A DNA stretch of 64,000 nt from Candidatus Fimenecus sp. (GTDB lineage: Bacteria; Bacillota; Clostridia; Oscillospirales; Acutalibacteraceae), in assembly GCA_045594885.1 (NCBI GenBank), contig JAZNZJ010000026.1, forward strand, positions 3,754 to 67,753, read 5' to 3'. The notes under the pieces are model-generated. The model saw only the letters and a list, made by a program, of their open reading frames with translations, did not search any database and had not been told where the DNA came from. The position numbers and the translations under genes were made by a program. This document shows, in pieces, positions 33,005 to 53,152 of the stretch (positions within the stretch are counted from its first letter, which is position 1; each line of letters opens with the position of its first letter).

Positions 33005-33148
33005 AAATAAACACCTCTTTAGCGAAATTTAAAAATGCGGACAGAAATTCTGCCCGCACCATTACAAATCAAACTTAAAAGTTAAGTATTGACCAGCCAA
33101 CTTAAAGTCGGTCAGGTGAGAACAAAAATCTGTTCTGCTTTATTTTGC
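33005..33148 (-). promoter_or_regulatory. L20-leader-like transcription attenuator upstream of infC-rpmI-rplT
   Basis: ~140-nt leader with several helices (agaaca-gauuuuu-guucu; ccgacu-uuaa-guuggc). A terminator hairpin gcgggcag-aauuu-cuguccgc plus auuuuuaaauuu lies just before the infC SD. Position and architecture match the Firmicutes L20 leader. Confidence 0.5.
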
Positions 33149-35286: not shown

Positions 35287-35349
35287 AACAATTCCCCTTT
35301 TCAAATATATAAAATATAACCACATTTATTTTACACCTCTAAAAAAGAA

Positions 35350-38115: not shown

Positions 38116-38976
38116 ATGAAAAAATTGCAGTTAAAAATTAAAATGTTTTTATTAGCATTGCTTATTCTTACTCTCAGCGTTCTTATTGTTCTCTACGTGG
38201 CTTTTTGTCGTGATGGCAATTACAACTCGGTTGAAATTACACAACGTACAGAAACCACCACACAAGCACCTGAAGCAACGACGGACGATGTTTCTGCACC
38301 TGAAGAAGATTTAACCGTAACCGAGGCAGAAAGCACCACTATACCTGAAGAAAGCACAACTCAACCTCTAGTTATATGGCAGAGCTATAAACCCGCAGAA
38401 AATCTTGCAACTGAAAATTGGGCTCTTACTTTAATCAATAAAGATTTTCCCCTTGATAAAACATACTCGCCCACACTTGCCCCTGTGATTGAAGGAAGTT
38501 CAATTACTGCCGACACCCGTGTTGCAGAAGAATTCAAAAAAATGTATGCGGACGCACAAACCGCAGGCTTTGTTCTCACACCATATTCAGGATATTGCAG
38601 TTATCAAAGACAGCAAACAAACTACAATAACAAGGTTCAAGCCTTTATTCTTCAAGGTATGGCCGAGGATGAAGCAAAACAGAATGCAGAAAAAAGAATT
38701 GAACCTGCAGGTTGTAGCGAAAACGGTGCGGGACTCAGTATTGACATAATAAGTGCAAGTGCAGGTTTTGCGTCAACAAAAGAATATGAGTGGCTTACAC
38801 AAAATGCTCATAATTATGGTTTTATTCTTCGATACCCCAGTGATAAGACCGAAATAACGGGAATGATTTATCAGCCATGGCACTGGCGTTATGTGGGCGT
38901 TGAAGCCGCAACTGAAATGAAATCAGGCAATTTATGTTTAGAAGAATATCTTAAAGTTACTAAAACTGAAAATTAA
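38116..38976 (+). CDS. D-alanyl-D-alanine carboxypeptidase, VanY/M15B family
   Basis: N-terminal TM segment, SGYCSYQRQ, SENGAGLSIDI, YGFILRYP...QPWHWRYVG motifs. Confidence 0.8.
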   Translation: MKKLQLKIKMFLLALLILTLSVLIVLYVAFCRDGNYNSVEITQRTETTTQAPEATTDDVSAPEEDLTVTEAESTTIPEESTTQPLVIWQSYKPAENLATENWALTLINKDFPLDKTYSPTLAPVIEGSSITADTRVAEEFKKMYADAQTAGFVLTPYSGYCSYQRQQTNYNNKVQAFILQGMAEDEAKQNAEKRIEPAGCSENGAGLSIDIISASAGFASTKEYEWLTQNAHNYGFILRYPSDKTEITGMIYQPWHWRYVGVEAATEMKSGNLCLEEYLKVTKTEN

Positions 38977-38990
38977 TTATCAAATATTTA

Positions 38991-39019
38991 ATGCGGAGTT
39001 AATAGCTCCGCATTTTTTG
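38991..39019 (+). terminator. Intrinsic terminator after the vanY-like gene
   Basis: atgcggag-ttaatag-ctccgcat followed by tttttgc. Confidence 0.7.
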
Positions 39020-39020
39020 C

Positions 39021-39050
39021 ATTTAAAAAGCCACTCACGAGGAGTGGCTT
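39021..39050 (-). terminator. Intrinsic terminator closing the 39.07-52.65 kb operon
   Basis: 9-bp stem aagccactc-acgag-gagtggctt, followed on the minus RNA by uuuuaaau. Confidence 0.65.
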
Positions 39051-39070
39051 TAATTATTTAAAATATTAGA

Positions 39071-40699
39071 TTAGATTGCGGGCTGTTCTTCCTCTTCTTC
39101 ATCATCCTTCTTGCGTTTAAAGAGGATTATGATGAATAAGAACAAGCTAAGCACCATTGTCAGACCTAATGTAACGGGGTTTTGGAACAAATCTGCAAGA
39201 GTATCTGGGTTAGGTATAATCGGTACGTCCTTTTTAGGTCCGCCGATTGTAATAATAACACCGTCGTTATCTTTATCTTTGTCACCACCGTCATAATCAT
39301 CTATATGACCATCGCCGTCTTTATCAGGGTCCTTATCATCAGGAATTCCGTCATTATCGTCATCGGGGTCGGTAACATCGGGGTCGCCGTCACCATCAGT
39401 ATCGACGTCGGGGTGGTCGGGGTCATCCTTATCGGGAATACCGTCGCCATCATCGTCGTCATCTTTGTCATCGGGGATTCCGTCATCATCCTTGTCATCA
39501 TCGGGGATTATTTCGCCATCGGGAAGCCCATCGTTGTCATCATCGTCATCTTCACTGTCGAGAATACCATCACCGTCTGTGTCACGTTCGGGACTATCTG
39601 GGTCGTCCTTATCAAGAATGCCGTCATTGTCATCGTCGTCATCCTCATTGTCGGGGATGCCGTCGTTGTCGTCATCGTCATCTACCTTGTCAGGAGTGCC
39701 GTCACCGTCTGTATCACGGTCGGGATGGTCAGGGTCATCCTTATCGGGAATGCCGTCATTGTCGTCATCGTCATCCTTATCATCGGGGATGCCGTCATTG
39801 TCGTCATCGTCGTCATTTCTGTCAGGAATACCGTCATCGTCTGTATCTCGATTAGGGTGGTCAGGGTCATCCTCATCCGGAATTCCATCGCCGTCATCAT
39901 CGGGGTCAGGAATTATATCATCATTGTCACCATCGGGGTCAACATCTCCGGGATTATCAGGGTCACCGGGGTCAGTTTTGTCCGGGTCTTGGTCCGGAAT
40001 TCCATTACCGTCGTTATCTACAATGTGAAAATCAAGATAAATAACCTTTGTTCCCTCAGGAACAAGAACTACCTGTGTGCCGTCCGATGCCTCTGTAAGA
40101 GTAATTTCATCAACTTCATCTGTAAATTCAACAACAAATGCTGTGTTTGAAAGCACTTTGTCATCTTTTGCGATTGTAACGAAATGCTTTCCTTCAGAAA
40201 TGTCTTCAACCTTGTAACGACCGTCATCATCAGTAGTAGCAGTTGCACTACCAAAATCAAAGCTCATAGTAGCATCTTTAAGCTCTTTGTCGCCTAAATA
40301 CACGGTACCTTCCATATCAGCCTTTTGGCAATCATCATTGGGGTCGTCCGAACATTTTTTAAAGGTAACATCAACATTAGTATCAGTAACAATATCACTG
40401 ATTTTCAGATTTCCGTTGACATATTCATCTGTAACATCAACACCATTTACAGTAATGGAATCTAAATGATAACCATTTTCTGTAAAGACGCCAAGGTCGA
40501 TTTCACCAAATCTGTCAATTTTAAATTGTGTTCCGTCAGCACATATTTTGCCGTTAACAAGAACAAAACCACCGTCGTTGTAATTGATTGTTACATTGTG
40601 TTCAAATGGCACAACTGTACCAATCTGTGTTGCAAAACTGGGAATAGCCGTAGCTATGAGCATTGCAATAACAACAACAATACTAAATACTTTTTTCAA
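39071..40699 (-). CDS. Membrane-anchored surface protein with CarboxypepD_reg-like domain and thrombospondin type-3-like Ca-binding Asp repeats
   Basis: TTG start 7 nt after GGAGGTG. Signal peptide ...AIPSFA. Segment GTVYLGDKELKDATMSF...TTDDDGRYKVEDISEGKHFVTI. About 250 aa of DxDxDGxPDxxD repeats. C-terminal TM segment LGLTMVLSLFLFIIILF, then KRKKDDEEEEE. Confidence 0.75.
   Translation of the reverse strand: MKKVFSIVVVIAMLIATAIPSFATQIGTVVPFEHNVTINYNDGGFVLVNGKICADGTQFKIDRFGEIDLGVFTENGYHLDSITVNGVDVTDEYVNGNLKISDIVTDTNVDVTFKKCSDDPNDDCQKADMEGTVYLGDKELKDATMSFDFGSATATTDDDGRYKVEDISEGKHFVTIAKDDKVLSNTAFVVEFTDEVDEITLTEASDGTQVVLVPEGTKVIYLDFHIVDNDGNGIPDQDPDKTDPGDPDNPGDVDPDGDNDDIIPDPDDDGDGIPDEDDPDHPNRDTDDDGIPDRNDDDDDNDGIPDDKDDDDDNDGIPDKDDPDHPDRDTDGDGTPDKVDDDDDNDGIPDNEDDDDDNDGILDKDDPDSPERDTDGDGILDSEDDDDDNDGLPDGEIIPDDDKDDDGIPDDKDDDDDGDGIPDKDDPDHPDVDTDGDGDPDVTDPDDDNDGIPDDKDPDKDGDGHIDDYDGGDKDKDNDGVIITIGGPKKDVPIIPNPDTLADLFQNPVTLGLTMVLSLFLFIIILFKRKKDDEEEEEQPAI
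39260..40018 (-). repeat. Tandem coding repeats (four ~44-aa units, each built of shorter DDDDDNDGIPD modules)
   Basis: Units of the form DPDHP(N/D)RDTD(D/G)DG.PD...DDDDDNDGIPD..DDDDDNDGI.DKD, visible as GAT/GAC-rich near-repeats in the DNA. Confidence 0.8.
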
Positions 40700-40748
40700 T
40701 GAAATCCACCTCCTTGAAAAATTTTTACCAAATCAACACGGAGGTCGA

Positions 40749-41285
40749 TTACGGAGTAGTTTTACCGCTATCGTAAACCACTGTGAATGTAAGTGTATCT
40801 CTGTATTCGCCAACCGGTTTACCTTCAAAGCTTGTAATTGCTACTTTAACATTTTTGCCGTCTATTACATTGGGGGCTGTTGTATTTGCAGGGTTAACTG
40901 CATCGAAAGTAACTGCACCGCCACCTGTAATAGTATAATCTAATTCTTCAGCTGTGCCGTCAGCTTTCATTTTGCCACTACCTGAAACAGAAATTGTAAG
41001 AGATGCACCAATAAGAAGCTGTGACTCAACTTTATAAGTCATATCGTGTTCATCTTTATTGTTCCAAGGAATACTTGTATCCGCCGGAATTGTAACAGTA
41101 TATGACCAGTCTGTGTTCTCATCAAAAGTTGTATAAACATCTGCTGTACCTGTCTGAGCACCTGTTGAAGCATCAGGAGTTGGTTCAGCCTGATTAATTT
41201 GTGTTTCGGTCGCTGCCGCAAATGCAGGAACCGCAATAGCCATCATCATTACGATAGCCATTAATAAAGCAATAATTTTTTTCAT
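40749..41285 (-). CDS. Small secreted beta-rich protein, tandem paralog P1 of 11
   Basis: Signal peptide MKKIIALLMAIVMMMAIAVPAFA. Family motifs YTVTIPADTSIPW, SQL..G, LDYTI, YRDTLTFTVVY. Confidence 0.8.
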   Translation of the reverse strand: MKKIIALLMAIVMMMAIAVPAFAAATETQINQAEPTPDASTGAQTGTADVYTTFDENTDWSYTVTIPADTSIPWNNKDEHDMTYKVESQLLIGASLTISVSGSGKMKADGTAEELDYTITGGGAVTFDAVNPANTTAPNVIDGKNVKVAITSFEGKPVGEYRDTLTFTVVYDSGKTTP

Positions 41286-41324
41286 AATAATTTACTCTCC
41301 TTTAATGGAGCAGTCAAATCTTAA

Positions 41325-41801
41325 TTAAACGATTTCTGCTGTGAATGTAAGAGTATCTGTGTAAGCATCAACAGGAACTGTTAACCAAGCTGCATTTGAT
41401 GTATCAATAGTAACTGTATCAACTTTGTCAACTAACACTTCTTCAGTTGCTGTGAATGTAGCATCTGTGATTGTATAAGCAAGAGTAGCTGTTGAGCCAT
41501 CCTTTTTCATAAGATATTCATCATCTGCGTCAGCAACAGAAACCTTTACAAAATCATCTGTTGCAAGCTGACTGTTGATTGTGTATTCAATTTTTGTTGT
41601 AGTTGCTTCCCAATAAATTTCCTGAGTTGCAGGAATTGAAACTGTGTACCAAGTTGGGTCACTGCCGTCTTCTTTTACTGTCTTTGTGTTAATAATTGTA
41701 TCGTTACCTGCGTTTGAACCGCCTTGAACTGCTGCAAAAGCAGGAACTGCGATAGCCATCATCATTACGATAGCCATTACTAATGCTAAAATCTTTTTCA
41801 T
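41325..41801 (-). CDS. Small secreted beta-rich protein, tandem paralog P2
   Basis: MKKILALVMAIVMMMAIAVPAFA; YTVSIPATQEIYW; LAYTI; AAW...YTDTLTFTAEIV. Confidence 0.8.
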   Translation of the reverse strand: MKKILALVMAIVMMMAIAVPAFAAVQGGSNAGNDTIINTKTVKEDGSDPTWYTVSIPATQEIYWEATTTKIEYTINSQLATDDFVKVSVADADDEYLMKKDGSTATLAYTITDATFTATEEVLVDKVDTVTIDTSNAAWLTVPVDAYTDTLTFTAEIV

Positions 41802-41822
41802 AACGTTTTCTCCTTAAAAATT

Positions 41823-42302
41823 TTATACCAGCTCTGCTGTGAATGTTAATGTACCACTGTAATTATCAATTGAAGCTTCTTCCCAATTTGAAGTGGGAAT
41901 GTTCACCTTTACCGCTGATGTTTCGGGTGACGATGCTAAAATTACTGATTGTTTAGTGGTATATGTTGTATCACTTAAACCATATTTAAGTGTTGCAGTT
42001 TTTGCTTGATTTTTCATAGTGAAACCATCGGCTGATGATACAACAATGCTAACAAGCTTTCCTGTCTGAAGTTGACAGAATATTGAATATTCTACATTGG
42101 TGTATTCCTTTCCCCAAGGAATTTCAACTTCTGCGGGAATGGTCACTGTAAATGAGCCTTCGCCTTTATCTTTTATGCCGTCAACAACAACTTTAGTTGT
42201 TGTTCCTGCAGTACCATTATCATATTGAGTATTGGCAAATGCAGGAATACAAACTGCAAACATCATAACAAGAGCAAGAGCTAATGAAAGTACTTTTTTC
42301 AT
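41823..42302 (-). CDS. Small secreted beta-rich protein, tandem paralog P3 (divergent signal peptide)
   Basis: MKKVLSLALALVMMFAVCIPAFA; FTVTIPAEVEIPW; LKYGL; NW...YSGTLTFTAELV. Confidence 0.8.
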   Translation of the reverse strand: MKKVLSLALALVMMFAVCIPAFANTQYDNGTAGTTTKVVVDGIKDKGEGSFTVTIPAEVEIPWGKEYTNVEYSIFCQLQTGKLVSIVVSSADGFTMKNQAKTATLKYGLSDTTYTTKQSVILASSPETSAVKVNIPTSNWEEASIDNYSGTLTFTAELV

Positions 42303-42326
42303 ATTAAGCCCTCATTTTTAAATCAA

Positions 42327-42794
42327 TTATGCACTAACTACTTCTGCTGTGAAAGAAATCTGTCCTTCATAAACATCATAAGGAACTGCGTCCCAAGCAC
42401 CTGGTGTGATTGTAATGTCAAATTTATGTTCTTCATTTGAAACAACTTCTTTTTCTGAAAGACCGTCTGTTTTGTCTGTTGCAGTAAATTCAATTGATTT
42501 ACCTGCAGCACTTGTCAAATCCTGTGATTTTGCAAGTGTAACCTGAACTTTTTTACCTGAAACGAGCTGACTTGTGATGAAATAAGATGCTTGACCGTTT
42601 GTGTTCCAAGTAAGATTAACTGAAGCAGGAATTGTAACTGACCATGTACCGTCACCAACACCTGATGTACCGTCAACGATAACAGTTGTATCACCTGCTT
42701 TTGTTGCACTATTTAATGAATTAGTTGCAAAAGCAGGAACTGCAATAGCCATCATCATTACGATAGCCATAACGAGTGCTAAAATCTTTTTCAT
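42327..42794 (-). CDS. Small secreted beta-rich protein, tandem paralog P4
   Basis: Start moved to ATG 42794, where the family signal peptide MKKILALVMAIVMMMAIAVPAFA begins and an SD AAAGGAGAT lies upstream. WSVTIPASVNLTW; YEGQISFTAEVV. Confidence 0.8.
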   Translation of the reverse strand: MKKILALVMAIVMMMAIAVPAFATNSLNSATKAGDTTVIVDGTSGVGDGTWSVTIPASVNLTWNTNGQASYFITSQLVSGKKVQVTLAKSQDLTSAAGKSIEFTATDKTDGLSEKEVVSNEEHKFDITITPGAWDAVPYDVYEGQISFTAEVVSA

Positions 42795-42828
42795 AATATT
42801 AATCTCCTTTATCTCTATTGGAATCAAC

Positions 42829-43326
42829 TTAAACAGCTGAGTAAACAACTGTATATGTTACTGTACCCTGATAAACTGCAGGAACTGCCTGGTCGTACTG
42901 TTCTTGTGCAATACTGATTGTAATATCTGTGTCAGGACCTTCGTTATTGTTGATTTCGTTAAATGTTTTTGCGTCAACACCGCCTGCGAGTGTGTATTCA
43001 AGTGAATAGCCTACAGCAACATCACTTGTCATTACAGCACCATTATCAGCAGCAACTGAAACTTTAAGACTTGCGCCGATAGGAAGCTGTGATGTAACTG
43101 AATAGTTAGCATCTTTAGTAGCTGTATCATCCCAAGCAAATGTGAATGATGCGGGATAAGTAACTGTGTAAGTAGCATCTGCATCTGATGTTGTTGTAGC
43201 AACTACTACCTGACCTTTTTGAGAACCGTCAGCTTCTTTTGCTGTATTTTGGTCAATAGCAAAAGCGGGAACTGCAATAGCCATCATCATTACGATAGCC
43301 ATAACGAGTGCTAAAATCTTTTTCAT
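42829..43326 (-). CDS. Small secreted beta-rich protein, tandem paralog P5
   Basis: Same signal peptide; YTVTYPASFTFAW; LEYTL; YQGTVTYTVVY. Confidence 0.8.
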   Translation of the reverse strand: MKKILALVMAIVMMMAIAVPAFAIDQNTAKEADGSQKGQVVVATTTSDADATYTVTYPASFTFAWDDTATKDANYSVTSQLPIGASLKVSVAADNGAVMTSDVAVGYSLEYTLAGGVDAKTFNEINNNEGPDTDITISIAQEQYDQAVPAVYQGTVTYTVVYSAV

Positions 43327-43338
43327 AATATTTTCTCC

Positions 43339-43824
43339 TTATTTCGTCTTTATTGAAACTGTAAATGTTACAAGGTCTGCATAATTATCAACTGAAACCT
43401 GATTCCAATGCTCCGGAAGAATAAGCACATATAAAACGTCCTCAACTTTGGTTTCCGGAATAACAGATTCAGTTAAACTGAAATTACCGTTAAGAAGTGC
43501 ATATGGAATTGCACCATTTACACCGTCTTTTAAAAGGTAATTATTCTGACCTTTTACATCGAAGTCTAAAACTTTTCCTGTTTCAAGCTGACACTCAACT
43601 GTGAATGGAATATAAGTATTTGTTGCACCCCAGTAAATTTCAACCTTTGCAGGAATTGTAACTATATAGTATGCGGCTTCTGTGCCATTCTCTTTTGTTG
43701 TAAGAGTGCAAATGTCTGTATTTGCCACATTATTGTTGTTATCAATTGTATTAGTGGCAAATGACGAAAAGCACATACTAATCAATAAAAGTAAAATTAT
43801 TACGAGAGTTAAAATTCTTTTCAT
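43339..43824 (-). CDS. Small secreted beta-rich protein, tandem paralog P6 (divergent signal peptide)
   Basis: MKRILTLVIILLLLISMCFSSFA; YIVTIPAKVEIYW; IPYALL; HW...YADLVTFTVSI. Confidence 0.78.
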   Translation of the reverse strand: MKRILTLVIILLLLISMCFSSFATNTIDNNNNVANTDICTLTTKENGTEAAYYIVTIPAKVEIYWGATNTYIPFTVECQLETGKVLDFDVKGQNNYLLKDGVNGAIPYALLNGNFSLTESVIPETKVEDVLYVLILPEHWNQVSVDNYADLVTFTVSIKTK

Positions 43825-43850
43825 AATCTTACCCCCATCAATTAAGCGAT

Positions 43851-44333
43851 TTAAACCTTATCGCTAAGAGTAGCTGTAAATGTAACATGACTTGAATATT
43901 CAGCGATTGTCTTATTCCAGTCAGCAACTGTGAATGTAAGAGTTTCTGTTTCGTCTGAAACTTCAACATAATCAACATCAACGTCACCTGATACTGTGTA
44001 TTCAAGTGTATCAGCAGTACCATTAGCTGTCATTGTACCTGTAACACCATGTGATGTCTGGTCTGCAACTGTAACATTGAGTTCCTTGCCAACTGCAAGT
44101 TGTGTTATTACTGTGTATGTTACATCATATGTTGGCGCATTCCAAGGAATAACGATTTCTGCAGGATATGTAACTGTATAAGTACCTGCACCAACTGCTG
44201 TCGTATCTGTCGTAACAAGAACATTATCATTCTGATTTGCTCCGCCAACTTCTGAAAAGCTACCTGCGAATGCGGGAACTGCAATAGCCATCATCATTAC
44301 GATAGCCATAACGAGTGCTAAAATCTTTTTCAT
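43851..44333 (-). CDS. Small secreted beta-rich protein, tandem paralog P7
   Basis: Family signal peptide; YTVTYPAEIVIPW; LEYTV; DW...YSSHVTFTATL. Confidence 0.8.
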   Translation of the reverse strand: MKKILALVMAIVMMMAIAVPAFAGSFSEVGGANQNDNVLVTTDTTAVGAGTYTVTYPAEIVIPWNAPTYDVTYTVITQLAVGKELNVTVADQTSHGVTGTMTANGTADTLEYTVSGDVDVDYVEVSDETETLTFTVADWNKTIAEYSSHVTFTATLSDKV

Positions 44334-44368
44334 AATATTTTCTCCTAAATGAAAATTAATTTTAAAAA

Positions 44369-44860
44369 TTAAATGTCAACGATTTCTGATGTGAATGTAA
44401 GAATATCTTTGTATTCGTCGAATGATGCTCCATCCCAATTTGGTTTTGAAACATCAACACTAAAGCTGTATGTTGCGTCAGTTTCAGTAGCTAAAACAAC
44501 GGGTCTTGTTGTTTTTGCAGTTGTTTCGCCGCTAAGTGCGTATGCAAGTTTTGCACCGCCTGCATTAACCATTTCAAAACCATTTGCATCTTTGTCAATG
44601 ATTGCAACAGAAACGCATTTACCTGTCTTAAGCTGTGATGTAATTGAATACTCGAAGCTTGTGTTTTCATCGCCCCATGTAAGAGCCATTGTTGCAGGAT
44701 AAGTAACTGTATAAGTACCTTCGCCAGCAACACCAGAAATATCTGTAACAACTTCTGCGTCGCCTGATTCGTTACCAACTTCAAGAGTTGCTGCAAATGA
44801 AGGAACTGCAATAGCCATCATCATTACGATAGCCATAACGAGTGCTAAAATCTTTTTCAT
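44369..44860 (-). CDS. Small secreted beta-rich protein, tandem paralog P8
   Basis: Family signal peptide (VPSFA); YTVTYPATMALTW; LAYAL; NW...YKDILTFTSEIV. Confidence 0.8.
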   Translation of the reverse strand: MKKILALVMAIVMMMAIAVPSFAATLEVGNESGDAEVVTDISGVAGEGTYTVTYPATMALTWGDENTSFEYSITSQLKTGKCVSVAIIDKDANGFEMVNAGGAKLAYALSGETTAKTTRPVVLATETDATYSFSVDVSKPNWDGASFDEYKDILTFTSEIVDI

Positions 44861-44892
44861 AATATTTATCTCCTTTTTAAATTAACTAACAA

Positions 44893-45396
44893 TTAAACGA
44901 TAGCTGCTGAGAATGTAAGAATATCTGAATATGTACCAACGATTGCTCTGTTCCAAGCATCTGCTGTGATGTCAACAGAAATAACTTTTTCTTCTTTTGG
45001 ATAAGTAACTGTTGCAAAGTTTACTGCTGTGTCACCTGTAAGTGCAAAATTGAGGTCAAGATTAACATTTTCTTCAGGAGAATATGTCATAACATTGTCT
45101 GAACTTGCAACTGCAACGTCAAGTGTTTTGCCATAGAGAAGGTGTGCTTCAACGAAATAGCTCATTGGAGTTGCCTCTGAGCCCCAATAAATTGTTGTAT
45201 CTGCAGGAATTTCAACTAAATACCAGTCGCCGTCGCCATCTGGAACACCGTCACCATTTTCATCTTTCTGTGTGCTTGTAGTGATTGTAACGTCACCTGA
45301 CTGACCGGGTTTTACGTTAAGGTCAGCTGCGAATGCGGGAACTGCGATTGCCATCATCATTACGATAGCCATAACGAGTGCTAAAATCTTTTTCAT
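44893..45396 (-). CDS. Small secreted beta-rich protein, tandem paralog P9
   Basis: Family signal peptide; YLVEIPADTTIYW; LNFAL; AW...YSDILTFSAAIV. Confidence 0.8.
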   Translation of the reverse strand: MKKILALVMAIVMMMAIAVPAFAADLNVKPGQSGDVTITTSTQKDENGDGVPDGDGDWYLVEIPADTTIYWGSEATPMSYFVEAHLLYGKTLDVAVASSDNVMTYSPEENVNLDLNFALTGDTAVNFATVTYPKEEKVISVDITADAWNRAIVGTYSDILTFSAAIV

Positions 45397-45435
45397 AATA
45401 TTTATCTCCTTTAATTAACTTATAGTAAACAGCAA

Positions 45436-45918
45436 TTATACTGTAACGATTGATGATGTATAAGTAAGGATGTCGCTGTACTCTTCAACAACTGCTGTGT
45501 TCCATGTAAGGTCATCAACAACAACTTTGAGTTCTACATTAGCTGCAGGATAAACATTAGCAGTAGCTGTTGTGTAATTTACAGTACCATCAAGTGCGTA
45601 AGCGAGTTCATAAGCACCATCTGCAGTTTTCATAGCACCATTACCTGCAACTGTAACATTTACTCTGTTGTTTCTTGTAAGGTGAGCTTCAACTTTGTAA
45701 GAAACGTCTGTTTCAGCTTCGCCCCAAGGAATAACTGTGTCTGCAGGAATTGTAACGATGTACTGTTCTGCATCATTACCATTTTTGTCTTTTGTATCTG
45801 TGCTGATAAGAACATCACCAGCCTCTGAAGGCTTTACTGTAAGGTCAGCTGCGAATGCGGGAACACAGATAGCGAGCATCATAACGAGTGCAAGTGCGAT
45901 TGAAATTACTTTTTTCAT
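45436..45918 (-). CDS. Small secreted beta-rich protein, tandem paralog P10 (P3-like signal peptide)
   Basis: MKKVISIALALVMMLAICVPAFA; YIVTIPADTVIPW; LAYAL; TW...YSDILTYTSSIV. Confidence 0.8.
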   Translation of the reverse strand: MKKVISIALALVMMLAICVPAFAADLTVKPSEAGDVLISTDTKDKNGNDAEQYIVTIPADTVIPWGEAETDVSYKVEAHLTRNNRVNVTVAGNGAMKTADGAYELAYALDGTVNYTTATANVYPAANVELKVVVDDLTWNTAVVEEYSDILTYTSSIVTV

Positions 45919-45955
45919 AACTGTTTTCTCCTTTATATCAAGATTAATTTACTAT

Positions 45956-46417
45956 TTAAACAGCATCAATATATTCAATAGTGAATGTAAGAATATCACT
46001 ATGTCTGCCTGATGCCGCCTGTAACCATTGTGCTTCTGTAACACTTACAGAAAGAGGAATTGCCTTGCCGTATTCACCGGGGAAGAAAGAGATGTCCTCT
46101 GCTCCCAAAAGAGCATATTCAATGGTACGCTTTGAATCGCTTGAATTTACAAGCTTATAGTCGTTTTCGGAACTAACCGAAACCTTAACTTTTTTGGCAG
46201 GTTCAATAAGCATTTTTTCTGCTTTTACCTCACCGATTCCCATAGAAGCTGTCATCCACGGGATTTCCACATCCGCTGGGAACGATAACACATAGTCAAC
46301 ATCTGCTTTTGTGGAAATTTCCATTGATTGTTCCAACGCAAAAGTTGGAACTATGCAAAGCAAGAGCATAACGAGTGCAAGACCTGCGGATAAAGCTTTT
46401 TTCATATAAAACATCAT
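45956..46417 (-). CDS. Small secreted beta-rich protein, tandem paralog P11 (shortest, divergent)
   Basis: (MMFY)MKKALSAGLALVMLLLCIVPTFA; YVLSFPADVEIPW; IEYALL; QW...HSDILTFTIEYI. The start could be 46417, 46414 or 46405. Confidence 0.75.
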   Translation of the reverse strand: MMFYMKKALSAGLALVMLLLCIVPTFALEQSMEISTKADVDYVLSFPADVEIPWMTASMGIGEVKAEKMLIEPAKKVKVSVSSENDYKLVNSSDSKRTIEYALLGAEDISFFPGEYGKAIPLSVSVTEAQWLQAASGRHSDILTFTIEYIDAV

Positions 46418-46428
46418 CTCCTCCCTTA

Positions 46429-49400
46429 TTATGTACCGTCGTCATAAATGACGGTATAAGTCAATGTCGTTCTGTACTCACCAAGTGCCGCTGCGTCCCA
46501 ATCCTCTTGACTGATTTTAACCTCAGGCTCATCCGTGGGCTTGGTAGCGGACGAAATATTTGTTGTAAATACAGTTTCTTTGAAATTGTATGCGGTATAT
46601 TCAATAGCATTATCGCCATTCATTAACTTACCTATGTTAGTTGCAGTATTGAAATTACCTGTATTATCTGCAACGTCAACGGTAAGAGTACCACCATTAA
46701 GAGATGCATTTTCTATTTCATAAGAAACACTCTTGTTTGCTGTGTCGTCCCAATCAACTGCCAAATCAGCAGGGATTGAAACAGTATAATAAATTGGGTC
46801 GGAACCATTTGTTGAAACGAACATAACGGGAATTTCAACTGTTGATACAGGTTCAAGTGTTGCCATATCAACACCGTCAGTAATCAAAGCACTGTCAAAT
46901 GCCATAAGAGTTACTGTACCTTCATATTGGTTACCCGTAGGAACTTTCTTTGCCTTTGCTTCATCAACTGAGATTTCAGGGGCAAAAGCACTTGTTACTC
47001 CGTTTGCATAATCACCAAGTTTAGTGTAAGTAACCGTTCCGTCAGTTCCCGTTGAACCGTTTACATTAAAGTATCCGAAATTATAAGCAGTTCCGCCTGT
47101 CTGTGTCCACTTGTAGTCAGTAACAAGGTAAACACTTACGGTTCTGTTAAGTCTTGCCGCAACATAGGTCAGATTTGCATCTGCCGTATCAAGATAAAGC
47201 GGGTGTTCATCGGAGTTTGTAAGAACTACCTGTTCACCGTCTGCTTTACCAAGGTCCGCCGTCGGCAAGAGAAGTGCAAGTTGAACGTAATCGTAGTTAA
47301 GCTCGTCAACCAAAGCATAACGTCTTAAGAATGCTTCGTACTGACCTAAACAATACTCAATTTCATTGAGTGTAGGTGTATCAAGTACGGTTCTTGCCGT
47401 AATCTTTGCACTGACGTCTGTATATGCGTTTTCGAGTCGGCGTTCATAGGTAATAATACCGCCCTCAACCGCAGCACCGGCATTTGGTGTAATTGCCGTT
47501 GAGTTATCGTGGATAGCCTCTGCCGCATCATACATATTCATATAAGCCGCCGCAACGTCGGTATCATCACTTAAAAGCTTTTTACCGAAAACACTAATAT
47601 CGGCATACATATCTGTGTAATATCCGAGAGCATTTACGGTGTTACCGTCAGCATCTGTAGTAGTTCCTGCGTACTTAACAGTTCTCAACTCGTTGTCGGA
47701 GTCTTCAGTATCAGGAATTCTGTCGGCATCATCGTCAGTATGTGAACTCAAACCGTAAATCCTTATAATGTTATTCTTAAAGGTTTCAACGTTCGCTATA
47801 ATACCGTCTTTTTCAACACCCTCGTGGACATCTGCGTCACCGCCAATCAAAACTGCACGCCGTGCCGCATTATAGGCATTTGTCAATCTGTTGAAATCAT
47901 AGTCTGTAATTGAGGCTCTGTCATCCATGCTCAAACGGTGATAACCTTTTTCGTACATATCTATAACTGATTGAGCTTCTTCAATACTTGTAAATCCAAG
48001 AGCTGTTAAATAGTCATCTTTATGAGTTTCGTACAAGTCTAACAAGGTTTCTTCGGCTGTGGAATATTCTTTCGCCGTTTCTGAAATCGCACCCAATGCC
48101 GTCAGCAGATTTTCTGCTGCAGTACCGTCGGCTGTTGCCGTATAAAGCGGTCGCCATTGTTCTTTTTGAATCTCATTAGTATAATCCCTGTAAAGGTTTC
48201 TATATTTTGCTTCAAGCAATGTTTCATAACAGTATTTTACTTCCGGAATTGTTTTCTGATAATCAGAAAGAGCCAAATAAGCATCTATGCACCTATCAAA
48301 AGAAGCTTTAAATTCTGCCTCTGTTGCATATGGGTCGATAGTTGAAACCATCTTTTCGAAGTTACTTGAGTCAACCGTTTTAACTCCGAAGTATTCGTCC
48401 ATATTCTTAACAGTAATACCGTTGTCTTGATTAAGTTCGCCATTACAGTCTGTATTATTACTTACACGGTTTGTACAAGCAGGGTCATAAGTAAAGCCAA
48501 GACCGTCAATTGTTAAATCTTTGCCTACGTTAGCACCTGTATAATCCCAGAATGTAATTTTTGCTTGTTTGATTTTATAACCATCATCAAGAAGATTATC
48601 AAAAATATAATAATCCATTCTTAATGTACCTGGTTTAGGTACACGGAAGTTTGAAAGAGGAATACGAATAAATCCTTTATATCCTTCCAGTTTGTTAAGT
48701 GACGACGGTGCAATTGAACAAAGAGCTTTTGCATTATCATCGCCGAACCAAGCGGAGTTGTCAAGTGCTGAAGATGAAAGGTTTTGAGCTTCCCATTCAC
48801 CATTTTCATCAAGCTGATAAATAACAGGTGTATCACTGAGGGTACCACCACAGAAATAACAGTTAACGTCGTTACCGCTTGAATCCTGAAGAATGAACTT
48901 AATATTCATATTCACTGCTTCAACATTGGTAAAGTCAACATACATAACAAAGGAGTTAGGAATTACACCTGCACCATATCTTGTTACATCTTCTGCGTCA
49001 GTTCCGTTTGTACTATCTGTCTTAACAGCGAGCGCACTCAAATCAAGTCCGGGAAGATTTCCCCAAGTATCTGCCTCTGCACCAAGATAGGTAGTCGAAA
49101 GTGTTGCAAGCTTTACATCACTCGACGAATTAAGGTCGCCGTTGATATTTATTGTTGCACCAAGCGAATCAGCAAAGCCCTTATTTGTAATCTGTGCATC
49201 CATTCTTGAGAAATATGTTCCCGCACTGTTATCAAGAGTTTCACCCGTTGGTCTGAAATCAGCCGGTGACCAACCAATGGCTTCACCAATCGCTGCAGAT
49301 TGGTTAATTGTTTTACTTGAAACATATGTTGTAAAATTACCCGTACTGTTTACGTCAGTAGCTTTACTGTCTTCATATGCCGGGTAATCATCATAATACA

Positions 49401-51753
49401 TATCGGACATCTGACCAAAAGTATAATTTTTCTCAAAGTCATTGAAAGGAATGTACGGATATGCACCAATTGACTGACCTGTTCTTACCTCTTCACCCAT
49501 AACCAAGTCATAAAGCTCAAGGAACTTTTCTTCTGATTCCTTACCCAACAACTCATAGTGAGAAAGGTTGAAGGTTTCATAAATTGCCATTAACTGTTTA
49601 AGAGTACCCTGCAATTCTTCGTCTGTATGACTTGCAAATTCTGCAGTAGGAAGTCCCTCAACAGTATTTTCAAAATAGATAACCGCATTATAGTTTGACT
49701 CGGCATTTTCTGAATAAACATACTCAACAAACTCTTCTGCATCTTTATAACGATTGTAAGCATCGGTATGACCAAGAGCTTTTAGCTTCTCGATTGCCTG
49801 TGAAACCTTTTCAGCATCTGAAAGAGCTGAATCCTTAGCAATACCGAAACATTCAATATAATTAAGAATAATGTCGTCAACCAAATCCTTGGCTGTCAAG
49901 TCATTAAGTGAAGGAATTTCACCAAAGTACTGCATAATGTATTCTGCAACAGCCTTTGGAACCTGAACAGTTCTGTCGTAGAAGCCTGACATTTTTCTAC
50001 CAAGGTCCGCTGTACCACTACTATTAACAGTAGCACCTTCTTGTGGGAATTTAATTGCTGATGCATCTGTTACGTAACCCGCACTATCGAACGTACCACC
50101 TGTGTTTTTCTGACAGAACATAACCTGGTCAATGTAGAAAGATTTATGAACTGACTCTGCCGTCCACTCTGCAACCTGAACACCCGCTGAAACAAGGTCT
50201 TCAATCGCAGTAAGGGGGTCGTTAACTGTGAATGTTACTGAACCATCATCTGCATATGTTTCTGTGATATCGCCTTGAGGAGCTTTAAGAGTATTATTCT
50301 TTGTATTACCATTACCCCATGTTTCGCTTCTTTCATAGAGAATAATCACATCTGTTACACAAGTACCTGCAGGATTAATCTTAATTCCGTAACCGGATTG
50401 GCTCGCTGCATATGGTTCTGCTGTTTTTGTTGTGCCGTCCGGCATAATAAGTTTATCATTTGCTGTAACACTTTCAGAAAGAACATATGCTGCGAGGTTG
50501 TCTGCATTACCCTCAGGAGTATCGCAACCGCCCTTTGCCCAAGATTCCAAAGTTACCGAGCTTGTCATATATTGGTCTTCTTGTAAAATGAAATACTCAA
50601 TCGGAACACGAACAAAACCCTTATAACCTGAAAGATTTGTAAAATAACCATCAGTCATCGAAGTTGATTCCCAAAGGCCATCAGCATTCTGAATATAAAT
50701 ACCTTCACTAACTGTTCCGGCATTTACACCAGCTACAGACACAGTTGAAAAAGTTTTACCATAATGAGAATATTCGTTTTTCTTTGTGTCATCTCTATAA
50801 TGTTCAAAAGATTTCTCGTTAGCCGATAAAGTAAATGCAAATTTATTAATTTGAGCACGGCTTAAATCAACATAGAACCAAACCTCTTCAGCATTTGAAA
50901 AGTCGTAGTGGTTACGGCTCCAAGTAGTTGTCATGATATATGGGGTTCCGTTGTATGCATTAGCTATCCATAAACGATAACCTGCACCGCCATCATAACC
51001 CATACCAGCCATCTGACCATTAACGTCAATCAATTCTGCACTTTGACGTTCAGAGTAGTCCGGACTCGTTGAACCACCATCCGATTGATTGGAATTATCA
51101 ATCTTCGCATTACCTTTCTGTTCAAAAAGCAACATTTCACGAACAACCCAACTCTCATTAGGTGAGAAGTCATCGTTAATAATGTAGTAAGGAGTTTTTG
51201 TGAGAAGTGTATGAATTTTATCTGACACCCAACCGTCGCTGTCAACCGCCTGAATTGATACGTCATAACTCGCATCAACTTCATAATCTTCAAGGCTTTC
51301 AAATGCACCCGGCCAGTAATAGATTGAGTTAGGATAGTTGTTACCCTCTGTGTTATCTACAGAAAAAGTACCTACACGACCATCTGCATTATTCAAATTA
51401 AAGTTTTCTGACCAGATTTCAGTACGAGTACCGTCATCTTCAAGCTTTGTAATGGTCATAACATAACTTGCAATTGATTTCTTTGTAGGTGCTGCCTCTG
51501 TGTAAGTGTTCCACGTTGCCGCCGCATTTGCGTGTGGGAATGCTACACTCAAACTACCGTCAGCATTAAGAGTTGCGATAAAGTTAGTATTGACCGCAGC
51601 CTCATTACTACCGTCACCCCAATAAGGTGCGGGGTCATATGAGCCCTCTCCGACTGCCCCGACCATTAACACGGGGATTGAAGAAACAATCATTATTAAA
51701 CTCATTAAAATCGAGAGTGCTTTTTTAGTGATATTCTTCTTTTTCATTCTCAT
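46429..51753 (-). CDS. Giant (1774 aa) secreted multi-module protein whose C-terminal ~150 aa carry the paralog-family domain (putative adhesin/tip component)
   Basis: Signal peptide MRMKKKNITKKALSILMSLIMIVSSIPVLMVGA. Two duplicated beta-sandwich-like modules ending LSGYKGFVRVPIEYF and LEGYKGFIRIPLSNF. Helical linker segments between modules. C-terminus YYTVSIPADLAVDW...IEYTA...DW...YRTTLTYTVIY. Confidence 0.8.
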   Translation of the reverse strand: MRMKKKNITKKALSILMSLIMIVSSIPVLMVGAVGEGSYDPAPYWGDGSNEAAVNTNFIATLNADGSLSVAFPHANAAATWNTYTEAAPTKKSIASYVMTITKLEDDGTRTEIWSENFNLNNADGRVGTFSVDNTEGNNYPNSIYYWPGAFESLEDYEVDASYDVSIQAVDSDGWVSDKIHTLLTKTPYYIINDDFSPNESWVVREMLLFEQKGNAKIDNSNQSDGGSTSPDYSERQSAELIDVNGQMAGMGYDGGAGYRLWIANAYNGTPYIMTTTWSRNHYDFSNAEEVWFYVDLSRAQINKFAFTLSANEKSFEHYRDDTKKNEYSHYGKTFSTVSVAGVNAGTVSEGIYIQNADGLWESTSMTDGYFTNLSGYKGFVRVPIEYFILQEDQYMTSSVTLESWAKGGCDTPEGNADNLAAYVLSESVTANDKLIMPDGTTKTAEPYAASQSGYGIKINPAGTCVTDVIILYERSETWGNGNTKNNTLKAPQGDITETYADDGSVTFTVNDPLTAIEDLVSAGVQVAEWTAESVHKSFYIDQVMFCQKNTGGTFDSAGYVTDASAIKFPQEGATVNSSGTADLGRKMSGFYDRTVQVPKAVAEYIMQYFGEIPSLNDLTAKDLVDDIILNYIECFGIAKDSALSDAEKVSQAIEKLKALGHTDAYNRYKDAEEFVEYVYSENAESNYNAVIYFENTVEGLPTAEFASHTDEELQGTLKQLMAIYETFNLSHYELLGKESEEKFLELYDLVMGEEVRTGQSIGAYPYIPFNDFEKNYTFGQMSDMYYDDYPAYEDSKATDVNSTGNFTTYVSSKTINQSAAIGEAIGWSPADFRPTGETLDNSAGTYFSRMDAQITNKGFADSLGATININGDLNSSSDVKLATLSTTYLGAEADTWGNLPGLDLSALAVKTDSTNGTDAEDVTRYGAGVIPNSFVMYVDFTNVEAVNMNIKFILQDSSGNDVNCYFCGGTLSDTPVIYQLDENGEWEAQNLSSSALDNSAWFGDDNAKALCSIAPSSLNKLEGYKGFIRIPLSNFRVPKPGTLRMDYYIFDNLLDDGYKIKQAKITFWDYTGANVGKDLTIDGLGFTYDPACTNRVSNNTDCNGELNQDNGITVKNMDEYFGVKTVDSSNFEKMVSTIDPYATEAEFKASFDRCIDAYLALSDYQKTIPEVKYCYETLLEAKYRNLYRDYTNEIQKEQWRPLYTATADGTAAENLLTALGAISETAKEYSTAEETLLDLYETHKDDYLTALGFTSIEEAQSVIDMYEKGYHRLSMDDRASITDYDFNRLTNAYNAARRAVLIGGDADVHEGVEKDGIIANVETFKNNIIRIYGLSSHTDDDADRIPDTEDSDNELRTVKYAGTTTDADGNTVNALGYYTDMYADISVFGKKLLSDDTDVAAAYMNMYDAAEAIHDNSTAITPNAGAAVEGGIITYERRLENAYTDVSAKITARTVLDTPTLNEIEYCLGQYEAFLRRYALVDELNYDYVQLALLLPTADLGKADGEQVVLTNSDEHPLYLDTADANLTYVAARLNRTVSVYLVTDYKWTQTGGTAYNFGYFNVNGSTGTDGTVTYTKLGDYANGVTSAFAPEISVDEAKAKKVPTGNQYEGTVTLMAFDSALITDGVDMATLEPVSTVEIPVMFVSTNGSDPIYYTVSIPADLAVDWDDTANKSVSYEIENASLNGGTLTVDVADNTGNFNTATNIGKLMNGDNAIEYTAYNFKETVFTTNISSATKPTDEPEVKISQEDWDAAALGEYRTTLTYTVIYDDGT

Positions 51754-51794
51754 CTTCCTTTCTTCAAAAGGTATCTATAAAATGAACGGGAATT

Positions 51795-52646
51795 TTATTC
51801 CGCCTCTGCTTCGCTTACCTTAATCTTTGTTGCAACAACCATATTGTTAAGCTTTGTTCTCTGTTGGTCAAATGAATACGGCTGTTGCATTACAACTGCA
51901 TCATATTCACCAACATCAAGTGTTCTCGTAATTGAGAACTTTGAAATTGAATAACCGGGTTGAACAAGCCCCGATTTATAAATCATTTCGTCTGCATCAT
52001 CAATCTTCTTGTTACCGTTTTTATCAAGATAGATTGTGAATTCCATAAAGCAGACACCTTCATTCTTTTTATGGTTTGTAAGAATTACGTTCTGCTCTTT
52101 CTGATTTGCCTTGAAATTCATTTCGGGAATACCGACAATTGTTACATTTTTGTTTGATGTATCAATTTTTGAAGGTAGGTCAAGCTTACCCTCACCAATT
52201 TCGGCATCCGTATCAAGAATTAATGGTGCTGTTGTAGTAGTTGTTTCAGGCTCAGCACCTGTTTTTACAAGATATGCTGTTCCAAGAACCAAAGCCACAA
52301 GTAAAAGCAAACCAAGTAAAGTCCAAAGAATAATTGCACCGATATTATCTTTCTTAACCGCTATAAATGAGCCCGTTTCAAGCTCTATGTAACCAATGGT
52401 CTTATATCTTGAGCCCGATGTTGCTTTATAAACGGTTTCTTCAATTCCGTCAACTTCAATTGTGCCCGCTTCGTCCTTACCGTATTTAAGCTGACCTACA
52501 ACACGAATACCCCCATCAGGATAAAGTGCTTTCATTTCTTTGACGGTGTAATAACCAACCTCAAAGCCGGTATCTTTATTATAGTATGACTCTGTATAGT
52601 CATTTCCTGTTTTAATAATGAATTGTGCCAAAATAAGTTCCTCCAA
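51795..52646 (-). CDS. Bitopic membrane protein, first gene of the operon (N-in, central TM, Thr-rich linker, ~150-aa outside domain)
   Basis: No signal peptide. TM segment AIILWTLLGLLLLVALVLGTAYLV is followed by EPETTTTTAP. The track start TTG 52646 overlaps GGAGG. TTG 52631 (8 nt after GGAGG) is an alternative start. The first in-frame ATG is codon 38. Confidence 0.65.
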   Translation of the reverse strand: MEELILAQFIIKTGNDYTESYYNKDTGFEVGYYTVKEMKALYPDGGIRVVGQLKYGKDEAGTIEVDGIEETVYKATSGSRYKTIGYIELETGSFIAVKKDNIGAIILWTLLGLLLLVALVLGTAYLVKTGAEPETTTTTAPLILDTDAEIGEGKLDLPSKIDTSNKNVTIVGIPEMNFKANQKEQNVILTNHKKNEGVCFMEFTIYLDKNGNKKIDDADEMIYKSGLVQPGYSISKFSITRTLDVGEYDAVVMQQPYSFDQQRTKLNNMVVATKIKVSEAEAE

Positions 52647-52705
52647 TAACGCACATCTTAAAATTAAAGATAGTTATAGATATAGATTTACAATTTAACA
52701 TTATT

Positions 52706-52734
52706 ATTTTAATACCATTTTTTTCAGTTGTCAA
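52706..52734 (-). promoter_or_regulatory. Candidate SigA promoter of the surface-protein operon
   Basis: Minus strand reads TTGACA (52734-52729), 17-nt spacer, TAAAAT (52711-52706). A second TTGACA at 52792-52787 has a weaker -10. Confidence 0.35.
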
Positions 52735-52954
52735 CACTTTTTATTGTATAATTTTATTAGTTTTTTTAAATATTTCGACATGTTTTTGTCAATCTACTAT
52801 AAATTATATCTAAATTATGAACACTAACGATTAAAATTGTTCAATAAACTCATTGTTCAGTATTTTTTTGACTAAAAACAGCCTTATAGACGTTTTATAA
52901 CTCAACCTCTCAACAAATTGGGAGTTGTAGAATTGATTTGTATGTACTGTTTAT

Positions 52955-53026
52955 GGTAGGGCGGGGTCTTGACCCCGCCGAATAACATATGGTAACTCAA
53001 CGGCGGGGTCAAGACCCCGCCCTACC
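52955..53026. repeat. Inverted pair of 25-nt GC-rich REP-like hairpin units
   Basis: ggtagggcggggtcttgaccccgcc (52955-52979) and its exact reverse complement (53002-53026), 22 nt apart. Each arm is itself a 7-bp hairpin ggcgggg/ccccgcc. Related single copy at 5812-5835. Confidence 0.8.
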
Positions 53027-53090
53027 GACGTTATTATTTATCCCAACAAATTCAATTTTATCAGGTTAAATTATTTACAATATGTATAAC

Positions 53091-53116
53091 AAAAAAGCGA
53101 GAGTTTCCTCTCGCTT
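53091..53116 (-). terminator. Intrinsic terminator after the SPFH/NfeD operon
   Basis: gcgagag-tttcc-tctcgc, followed on the minus RNA by uuuuuuguu. Confidence 0.7.
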
Positions 53117-53152
53117 TGATTGTTATGACGATTAAAACCGCCCATTGTTAAA

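Follow-up and report, generated by a model that had tools for sequence, protein, structure and literature searches.

A candidate sortase-independent surface-display operon with eleven tandem beta-sandwich paralogues in Candidatus Fimenecus and related Acutalibacteraceae

We analyzed a 64,000-nucleotide (nt) stretch of contig JAZNZJ010000026.1 (assembly GCA_045594885.1), referred to here as the window, from Candidatus Fimenecus sp. A preliminary description made from the letters alone had judged the genome Clostridia-like, and the organism indeed belongs to the Acutalibacteraceae within the Oscillospirales. Between 39.0 and 52.7 kb, 14 co-directional genes on the minus strand form a block of 13.7 kb, encoding a membrane protein, a giant secreted protein, eleven small paralogues (s01 to s11), and a terminal anchored protein. 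The features are given below in the direction of the genes, with lengths in amino acids (aa) and with the expect value (E) of the match to a hidden Markov model (HMM) of the domain that the small proteins share.

52706-52734, minus strand: promoter-like site with the sequence TTGACA-17-TAAAAT, upstream of the first gene by about 75 nt; a consensus match only
51795-52631, minus strand: bitopic membrane protein, 278 aa, first gene of the block
46429-51753, minus strand: giant secreted protein, 1774 aa, with an N-terminal signal or anchor segment at residues 11-37
46429-46860, minus strand: C-terminal copy, within the giant, of the shared domain of about 135 aa, E 4e-36
45956-46405, minus strand: s01, 149 aa from MKK, E 1e-35
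45436-45918, minus strand: s02, 160 aa, E 1e-43, with a positional orthologue in all loci
44893-45396, minus strand: s03, 167 aa, E 4e-42
44369-44860, minus strand: s04, 163 aa, E 7e-46
43851-44333, minus strand: s05, 160 aa, E 8e-36
43339-43824, minus strand: s06, 161 aa, E 5e-44
42829-43326, minus strand: s07, 165 aa, E 1e-41
42327-42794, minus strand: s08, 155 aa from MKK, E 9e-40
41823-42302, minus strand: s09, 159 aa, E 3e-46
41325-41801, minus strand: s10, 158 aa, the paralogue modelled with AlphaFold2
40749-41285, minus strand: s11, 178 aa, E 1e-43
39071-40699, minus strand: terminal anchored protein, 542 aa, last gene of the block
39027-39051, minus strand: terminator-like hairpin of 10 bp, 5 of them GC, followed by TTTTTAAAT

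The preliminary description had placed the 14 genes 10 to 50 nt apart, most with a Shine-Dalgarno sequence of their own, and both points hold: the measured gaps are 11 to 49 nt, and a GGAG-type Shine-Dalgarno sequence is present at 10 of the 11 small genes. The proposed bracketing by a promoter and a terminator was likewise recovered, with the promoter-like site being the top-scoring sigma-70-type consensus match in 38500-53300 (11/12) and the hairpin terminator lying at the other end. The intergenic gaps of the block contain no terminator-like hairpin, as had been claimed; the few minus-strand matches to the terminator consensus within the block are weak stems of 6 to 7 bp inside coding sequence, and the total count of 15 is not above the shuffled expectation of 9.2 +/- 3.7. 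Upstream of the operon, Rfam detected neither a riboswitch nor a leader. For the first gene, the most likely start is TTG 52631 rather than 52646, because the former lies 7 nt after GGAGG and 37 of 37 homologues begin with MAxF. The starts of s01 and s08 are probably at the MKK codons at 46405 and at 42794, respectively.

One beta-sandwich module of about 135 aa makes up the whole mature part of all eleven small proteins and recurs at the C terminus of the giant. In an alignment of the 11 paralogues with the last ~150 residues of the giant, the Pro-Ala pair and a Trp are invariant within the signature [YF]xV[TS][IY]PA...IxW ... SQLxxGKxLxVxV ... LxYxL ... W...YxDxLTFT, of which V, Y, T, and T are nearly invariant. 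The domain HMM finds exactly 12 matches in the window, namely, the 11 paralogues and the tail of the giant (E 1e-35 to 1e-46), and the C-terminal segment of the giants aligns with the small-protein family at an hhalign probability of 99.7 % (E 3.5e-25); this confirms the domain sharing that the preliminary description had reported. When 1.84 billion cluster representatives were searched exhaustively with the HMM, 2482 clusters were retrieved at E <= 1e-3 and 606 at E <= 1e-10.

The mature small proteins are acidic (pI 4.0 to 4.6), almost free of cysteine, and rich in Thr and Ser, and they are about 30 % identical to one another behind near-identical AxA-type signal peptides. The shortest paralogue, s01, has no variable N-terminal linker and is always first after the giant, while the last and longest, s11, carries a long N-terminal linker rich in Thr, Pro, and Ala and has orthologues of 54 to 74 % identity in other genomes. 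For the most divergent member, s06, the Shine-Dalgarno sequence is weak and the signal peptide is its own; the closest locus holds no clear orthologue (best cross-locus identity, 38 %).

As a separate observation, the 69-nt 5' ends that code for the signal peptides are 90 to 97 % identical in DNA among six small genes, with a seventh at 80 to 87 %. Examples lie at 42726-42794, 43258-43326, 44265-44333, 44792-44860, and 45328-45396, and all encode MKKILALVMAIVMMMAIAVPAFA or a near variant. Two signal peptides of one genome are more alike than those of positional orthologues from two genomes; this, together with the ~30 % identity of the mature parts, suggests gene conversion limited to the 5' ends.

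The giant keeps a length of 1730 to 1900 aa even among homologues of 24 % identity. HMM scanning found the C-terminal shared domain in the giants of all seven other loci that carry the whole set of genes. The remaining ~1600 aa matched no known domain: a Pfam scan of 27 giants gave nothing consistent (21 families at E <= 1), and self-BLAST showed no internal repeats. The penultimate domain of the giant (46860-47250, residues ~1505-1640) ends in a Y-E-G-T-V-T-L strand like that of the shared domain. It has no detectable relation to the small family in hhalign (0.5 %), so that a tandem pair of shared domains in the giant is unsupported. The best PDB-sequence matches of the giants' profile fall on this penultimate domain and are nonsignificant (E 0.36 to 0.42), to donor-strand-complemented CfaB, the CFA/I pilin.

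In related genomes, the shared domain is also found outside such operons. Three proteins of about 465 aa recovered in the exhaustive HMM search (P0316, P0332, and P0346) consist of a signal peptide, BspA-type leucine-rich repeats (LRR_5), and the shared domain at the C terminus. One of them, P0316, is encoded by a single gene (10001-11389 of L013) far from any cassette, close to a cohesin gene and ~8 kb from two sortase genes. In stand-alone surface proteins (P0316, P0332, P0346, P0335, and P0289), the domain follows either such repeats or other N-terminal regions, and on reading of the sequences, the copy on the leucine-rich-repeat (LRR) fusions resembles the s02 type. A C-terminal position on different passengers is that expected of an anchoring or assembly module.

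Given the 82-sequence family alignment, AlphaFold2 modelled mature s10 as an all-beta sandwich (mean predicted local distance difference test [pLDDT], 93.5; predicted template modelling score, 0.80). Mature residues 11-27 were placed at pLDDT > 90 and are not strand paired in the monomer. In a Foldseek search against the PDB, the best matches of this model were almost all chaperone-usher pilus subunits: the CsuE pilin domain (E 1.8e-3, template modelling [TM] score 0.51), CsuA/B (E 2.9e-3, TM score 0.47), and, more weakly, CfaB, FimG, FimA, PapA, and PsaA. TM scores across all these matches were 0.45 to 0.51, and none reached E < 1e-3. A viral library yielded nothing (best E 0.02), and TasA, archaeal thread, and bundling-pilus structures were not among the top structural matches. 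The model suggests an immunoglobulin (Ig)-like fold closest to those of pilins, which we take as a lead and not as a classification. Profiles of pilin families (Fimbrial PF00419, SCPU, CblA/CfaB, and Afa/Dr) were not matched above threshold. The sub-threshold Pfam matches (AfaD in 6 of 82 members, best E 0.002; DUF4402 in 4 of 82, best E 0.01) were given no weight, and the DUF4402 match of s07, the only one whose coordinates were checked, is out of register.

The 278-aa membrane protein is the most conserved component of the block, with 84 homologues found and 39 to 92 % identity over 36 that were aligned; an exact look-up of the sequence from the window gave no record. Its AlphaFold2 model (pLDDT 85) predicts a conserved cytoplasmic beta domain (residues 1-95), a transmembrane helix (97-124), a linker of ~45 residues that carries an invariant G-x-G-x-L-D-L-P motif, and, outside the cell, a beta-sandwich (170-273). 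In Foldseek, the protein weakly matched PapD-like domains, the chaperones CsuC and Caf1M, and the PsaA pilin (E 1e-3 to 2e-2), with the ectodomain matching CsuC and Caf1M at E 6e-3 to 2e-2. None of the nine block proteins scanned had a Pfam match to PapD_N/C or Usher. An RsgI-like anti-sigma factor was considered and rejected, as there was no match and no sigma factor gene adjoins in any locus.

These resemblances raise a reading that we consider rather unlikely, in which the small pilin-like subunits polymerize head to tail by donor-strand exchange. The sandwich of a subunit would be closed by the N-terminal [VI]-x-[VI]-x-T strand of the subunit after it, in the order giant-s01-...-s11-terminal protein, to give a sortase-independent pilus of defined length with the giant at the tip, and the PapD-like ectodomain of the membrane protein would serve as a tethered chaperone. 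Consistent with this, s10 finds chaperone-usher pilins and a tip-adhesin pilin domain as its best structural matches, the ectodomain weakly matches chaperones of the CsuC, Caf1M, and FimC type, the giant carries its pilin-like domain C terminally like two-domain tip adhesins, and the order of the subunits is conserved. The N-terminal strand-like segment has a near-invariant Thr and, in the s10 model, is placed confidently but not paired as a strand, and the best, though nonsignificant, PDB-sequence matches of the giants' profile are to CfaB fusions. However, every structural or sequence link to pilins is below significance, the Pfam matches being few and the one checked out of register. The giant and the LRR fusions likewise retain the N-terminal strand ahead of the domain, where classical tip subunits would need no donor strand, a single major subunit is not indicated, and there is no usher, although none would be expected in a monoderm.

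The last gene of the block encodes a protein that begins with a signal peptide and two beta domains, continues through an Asp-rich spacer of ~250 aa, and ends in NPDT-L ... NPV, a transmembrane segment (507-529), KRKK, and an unusual, conserved acidic tail. The spacer contains 13 matches to the thrombospondin-type-3 calcium-binding consensus DxDxDGxxDxxD, and calcium binding is predicted. In the eight loci that conserve this protein, the signal peptide, the N-terminal beta domains, and the C-terminal anchor are kept, and the spacer ranges from absent to ~370 aa. The preliminary description had reported neither LPXTG nor sortase, and our search found neither LPXTG in the block nor, anywhere in the window, a TLxTC sortase signature; that statement needs refinement only at the C terminus of the terminal protein (39071-39200). 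There, a motif, ~10 residues, a hydrophobic segment, and KRKK reproduce the layout of a sortase sorting signal with a noncanonical motif, which is [NI]P[DN]T[LF] (NPDT-L in the window) and of the [IS][KQ]TG type (IKTG, SKTG, or TQTG) in the more distant loci L005, L011, and L012. Outside the block, a 696-aa open reading frame (ORF) at 33235-35325 on the minus strand looks like another membrane-anchored exoprotein with this style of anchor: it has a signal peptide, a GLSHGG serine-hydrolase-type motif, an acidic spacer rich in Thr and Glu, and a C-terminal hydrophobic stretch before a tail of KRREE.

Related genomes strongly conserve this set of genes. With the giant as the query, we recovered four loci from species-representative genomes, and exact look-ups of relatives added more, so that the whole cassette is present in seven other loci (L001, L002, L004, L005, L007, L011, and L012). 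In these, the membrane protein has 265 to 283 aa, the giant 1743 to 1835 aa, and the terminal protein 317 to 667 aa, and the domain HMM matches every small gene and the tail of every giant. The number of small genes is 4, 5, 5, 6, 7, 7, or 10, compared with 11 in the window, and the window and L004 have an expanded middle set. Small genes are positionally orthologous, s01 with s01 (the best-conserved small subunit, at 47 to 66 % identity), s02 with s02, and last with last. The cassette is kept even where the giant is only 24 to 27 % identical to that of the window and the flanking genes are unrelated. Samples with these loci came from the human gut, yak caecum, and similar sources. One giant is present on 84 blocks of the collection, and one housekeeping protein of a carrier is found on at least 1000 contigs.

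This pattern bears on the possibility that nothing is assembled at all and that the small proteins are diversified, independent secreted or wall-associated binders (for example, lectin-like binders of glycans or host ligands) or variable surface antigens that are merely coexpressed with a large exoprotein. Divergence of the mature parts to ~30 % identity, a copy number that varies from 4 to 11 between genomes, and signal-peptide 5' ends that evolve in concert, as in contingency and antigen gene families, all fit such a reading, as does the fact that several of the chaperone-usher structural neighbors (PsaA, AggA, and the Afa/Dr type) are themselves adhesive subunits. On the other hand, even between deeply diverged loci, the small genes occur strictly together with the giant and both membrane proteins and keep their order, and the C-terminal position of the domain on large passengers is typical of an anchoring or assembly module and not of a ligand-binding head. 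We therefore regard independent binders as quite improbable.

The surroundings of the block are those of a chromosome, since housekeeping genes lie on both flanks: topA, dprA, and infC on one side and SPFH/NfeD genes on the other. Upstream of infC (32486-32989), Rfam places an L20_leader at 33023-33146 on the minus strand (68 bits, E 2e-11), an ordinary ribosomal-protein autoregulatory leader. At 52954-53027, within the AT-rich spacer upstream of the operon promoter-like site, lies a GC-rich nested palindrome, GTAGGGCGGGGTCTTGACCCCGCC ... GGCGGGGTCAAGACCCCGCCCTAC. A similar 20-mer lies 47 kb away at 5812-5831, with 0 expected by chance; the element looks like a repetitive extragenic palindrome or a miniature inverted-repeat transposable element, and no Rfam family matches it. 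Farther out, the translation of a 513-aa ORF (56921-58462, minus strand), read by eye, combines an N-terminal part resembling Wzz and a P-loop ATPase part with a C-terminal (GY)9-type Tyr-Gly repeat and a basic tail, and it looks like a chain-length regulator of the BY-kinase type. Beside it are an ATP-binding cassette (ABC) exporter (58549-60189), a 239-aa ORF (60460-61179), and a 574-aa ORF (61182-62906). The syntenic counterparts of the 56921-62906 genes in L007 match the Pfam families CbiA/ParA, ABC, ScmC and PqqD, and LysM/G5/Peptidase_M23.

We compared these proteins with known families by scanning nine of them (six small paralogues, the giant, the membrane protein, and the terminal protein) against Pfam and NCBIfam, the five remaining paralogues being covered by a Pfam scan of the 82-member family alignment. 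No match above threshold was found in the nine proteins, and the 82 small-family sequences with the tail of the giant gave nothing consistent (25 families at E <= 10). Profiles of the small family, membrane protein, giant, and terminal protein found nothing significant in PDB-sequence searches; a calnexin match of the terminal protein (E 0.01) was dismissed, as it falls on the acidic repeats. The precomputed Pfam column is empty for the 120 small-family matches listed of 632 and for all 84 membrane-protein and all 93 giant homologues, and the few names that relatives bear at the source are "hypothetical protein." Neither the s10 model nor that of the membrane protein had a confident structural match (best Foldseek E, that of s10 to CsuE, 1.8e-3). 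Two further candidates were set aside: cohesin/dockerin, which is encoded in the lineage, had no Pfam match and no cohesin structure among the top structural matches, and the F-ENA/Ena spore appendages (PMC11844507) are a different family, with no Ena-type (DUF3992) match in the Pfam scans. The Ena reading was dropped also because the proteins carry signal peptides and the promoter-like site is of the sigma-70 type. Literature searches did not find a description of such a system. As judged from profiles, none of the four component families matches a described protein family.

The resemblance to WxL loci had been raised in the preliminary description, and we examined it with two genuine WxL clusters fetched by motif query, from Enterococcus gilvus pCR1A and a Bacillus tropicus plasmid (L009 and L010). 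Genuine WxL proteins (E 9e-69 and 6e-63) and WxLIP domains (E 8e-42 and 8e-45) score strongly in the same library, which makes the negative result for the window meaningful. PF13731 (WxL) gave no match at E <= 1 in the nine window proteins and is absent among the 25 families listed for the 82 members at E <= 10. PF06030 and PF11797 (WxLIP_PGBD and WxLIP_HBD) gave no match in the block proteins scanned or in the 82 members at the same thresholds, and all three families were absent from the matches of 27 giants at E <= 1. More generally, HMM scans of the 82 small-family sequences with the tail of the giant, of the 27 giants, and of the window's own membrane and terminal proteins yielded nothing confident for WxL, DUF916/DUF3324, TasA/M73, or cohesin. 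In hhalign, the small family and the WxL alignment gave 2.8 % over 14 columns, and the membrane protein and WxLIP (DUF916/DUF3324) gave 1.2 %.

The motifs also differ. In WxL proteins, motif 1 lies within DxRGTxxGWxL and motif 2 within YxxxLxWxLxxxP at the C terminus (PMC9772566). The DxRG...WxL motif 1 is absent from the family alignments studied here. The C-terminal strand reads Y-x-D-x-L-T-F-T, where Trp is replaced by Phe and both the Leu at +2 and the terminal Pro are missing, and the two conserved Trp stand elsewhere than in WxL, one in IPAxxxIxW and one before the last strand. The solved WxL structure 9i25 was not among the top 50 structural matches of the s10 model. Membership in the WxL family is thus rejected at the level testable here by profiles, hhalign, and motifs. 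A true but extremely divergent WxL system, with a domain that binds peptidoglycan noncovalently and a membrane protein that acts as a stabilizing WxLIP analogue, would still share the logic of the cluster on four points and the acidity of the small proteins, and the only stretch that hhalign aligns is the last strand, where Y-x-[DG]-T-L-T-F-T (Y..TLTFT) resembles Y-x-x-T-L-T-W-T-L (Y..TLTWTL) of motif 2. We nonetheless consider it improbable, given the failure of every profile comparison, the missing motif 1, a domain of ~135 aa rather than ~180 to 210 aa, and a membrane protein of opposite topology. The earlier suspicion of a distinct or very remote family with a WxL- or pilus-like operon logic is supported, and no result that could be tested here spoke against it.

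Our preferred explanation, which we hold with moderate confidence, is that the block is one operon for a sortase-independent apparatus of surface display and adhesion in gut bacteria of the Acutalibacteraceae. All of its parts are predicted to be Sec exported or membrane inserted. The shared module would be the unit of assembly and attachment: the domain-only paralogues may form a hetero-oligomeric stalk or platform as a scaffold at the cell surface, into which large passengers such as the giant and the LRR adhesins would plug via their C-terminal copy. Two bitopic membrane proteins could hold the structure to the cell, the 278-aa protein placing an Ig-like ectodomain close to the membrane and the terminal protein offering an Asp-rich, predicted calcium-binding spacer that could span the wall.

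Several points weigh against this explanation. The evidence is entirely computational, so that export, cotranscription, localization, and interactions are read from sequence. The hosts are uncultured Clostridia, known from metagenome-assembled genomes named Acutalibacteraceae, Oscillospiraceae, or Candidatus Fimenecus. The term "adhesion" draws on analogy and on the LRR fusions, and the ~1600 aa of the giant lack a match in either Pfam or PDB-sequence searches. The structural matches, none at a Foldseek E of < 1e-3, could reflect a generic Ig-like sandwich, and the Shine-Dalgarno strength is roughly equal across ten small genes and so does not indicate a single major subunit.

The cassette is conserved across a lineage (Candidatus Fimenecus/Acutalibacteraceae) often met in gut metagenomes of humans, ruminants, and poultry. 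These uncultured bacteria probably have in it their main structure for surface display, which would make it a candidate for attachment to host mucus, fiber particles, or other microbes. Four new families, all of them still unnamed, with neither a Pfam model nor a relative of solved structure, could be defined: that of the small domain (about 600 to 2500 clusters at 50 % identity) and those of the membrane protein, the giant, and the terminal stalk protein. A bolder proposal, which we advance tentatively and think unlikely to be correct as a whole, is a new class of sortase- and usher-independent pilus in monoderm Clostridia, namely, a strand-complemented heteropolymer of 4 to 11 different pilin-like Ig subunits in a defined order. 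Its tip would be the 1750-aa adhesin or an alternative LRR adhesin with the same C-terminal module, its assembly would take place at a membrane-tethered PapD-like chaperone, and its root would be the calcium-binding, membrane-anchored stalk. Such a pilus would be an evolutionary or convergent counterpart of the Gram-negative chaperone-usher pili, and if the pilin-like fold reflects real strand-exchange polymerization, it would represent a new assembly class among Gram-positive pili.

Among known systems, sortase pili and the donor-strand fibers of TasA and archaea are comparable as multisubunit surface structures of monoderms, with tip adhesin, shaft, and base in one operon. The block differs from sortase pili in having no sortase, LPXTG, or pilin motif and from TasA fibers in having no SipW-type peptidase and no TasA/Peptidase_M73 match in the Pfam and NCBIfam scans.

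Chaperone-usher pili (Csu, CFA/I, type 1, and P pili) provide the nearest solved folds. They share with the block a tip-adhesin-like protein with a C-terminal pilin-like domain, ordered paralogues resembling minor subunits, a C-terminal G/D-x-Y-x-x-x-[LV]-T-[FL]-T strand motif, and the weak PapD-like resemblance of the membrane-protein ectodomain. In contrast to those pili, no sequence or structure score here is significant, and there is no usher, periplasm, or soluble chaperone; the hosts are monoderm Clostridia by lineage.

The closest likeness in organization is to the WxL/Csc clusters of Lactobacillales and Bacillales, which combine small WxL proteins, a large WxL protein, a WxLIP of the form DUF916-DUF3324-transmembrane segment, and a small LPXTG protein. 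A WxL gene cluster has been defined as a minimum of one WxLIP together with two WxL proteins within four genes, and in AlphaFold2 predictions the membrane partner has a hairpin that inserts beside the N-terminal strand of WxL (PMC10599100). The pairing of small domain-only proteins with a large protein that ends in the same domain is found here for the new domain, as an organizational resemblance only. In both systems, the small secreted proteins are acidic and consist of the domain alone, the large protein carries it at the extreme C terminus, a single-pass membrane protein has Ig-like ectodomains, a further protein has a C-terminal wall or membrane anchor, and passenger domains include LRR adhesins. 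Both genuine clusters examined, L009 and L010, even have three small WxL genes in tandem. The differences are equally clear. There is no detectable sequence relation, and the domain is shorter and lacks motif 1. There are 4 to 11 small genes rather than 1 to 3, together with a giant of ~1750 aa of unassigned domains. The topology of the membrane protein is the reverse of that of WxLIP, with the N terminus inside, no signal peptide, a conserved cytoplasmic domain, a transmembrane helix, and a single ectodomain. Bacilli account for 99 % of the WxL sequences of Firmicutes (PMC9772566), whereas the hosts here belong to the Oscillospirales (Clostridia). By analogy, the WxL type of design, with a shared C-terminal module, domain-only paralogues, and a membrane partner, appears to have an independent counterpart in Clostridia, where families with no detectable sequence relation would follow the same apparatus logic as the WxL/Csc clusters of Bacilli.

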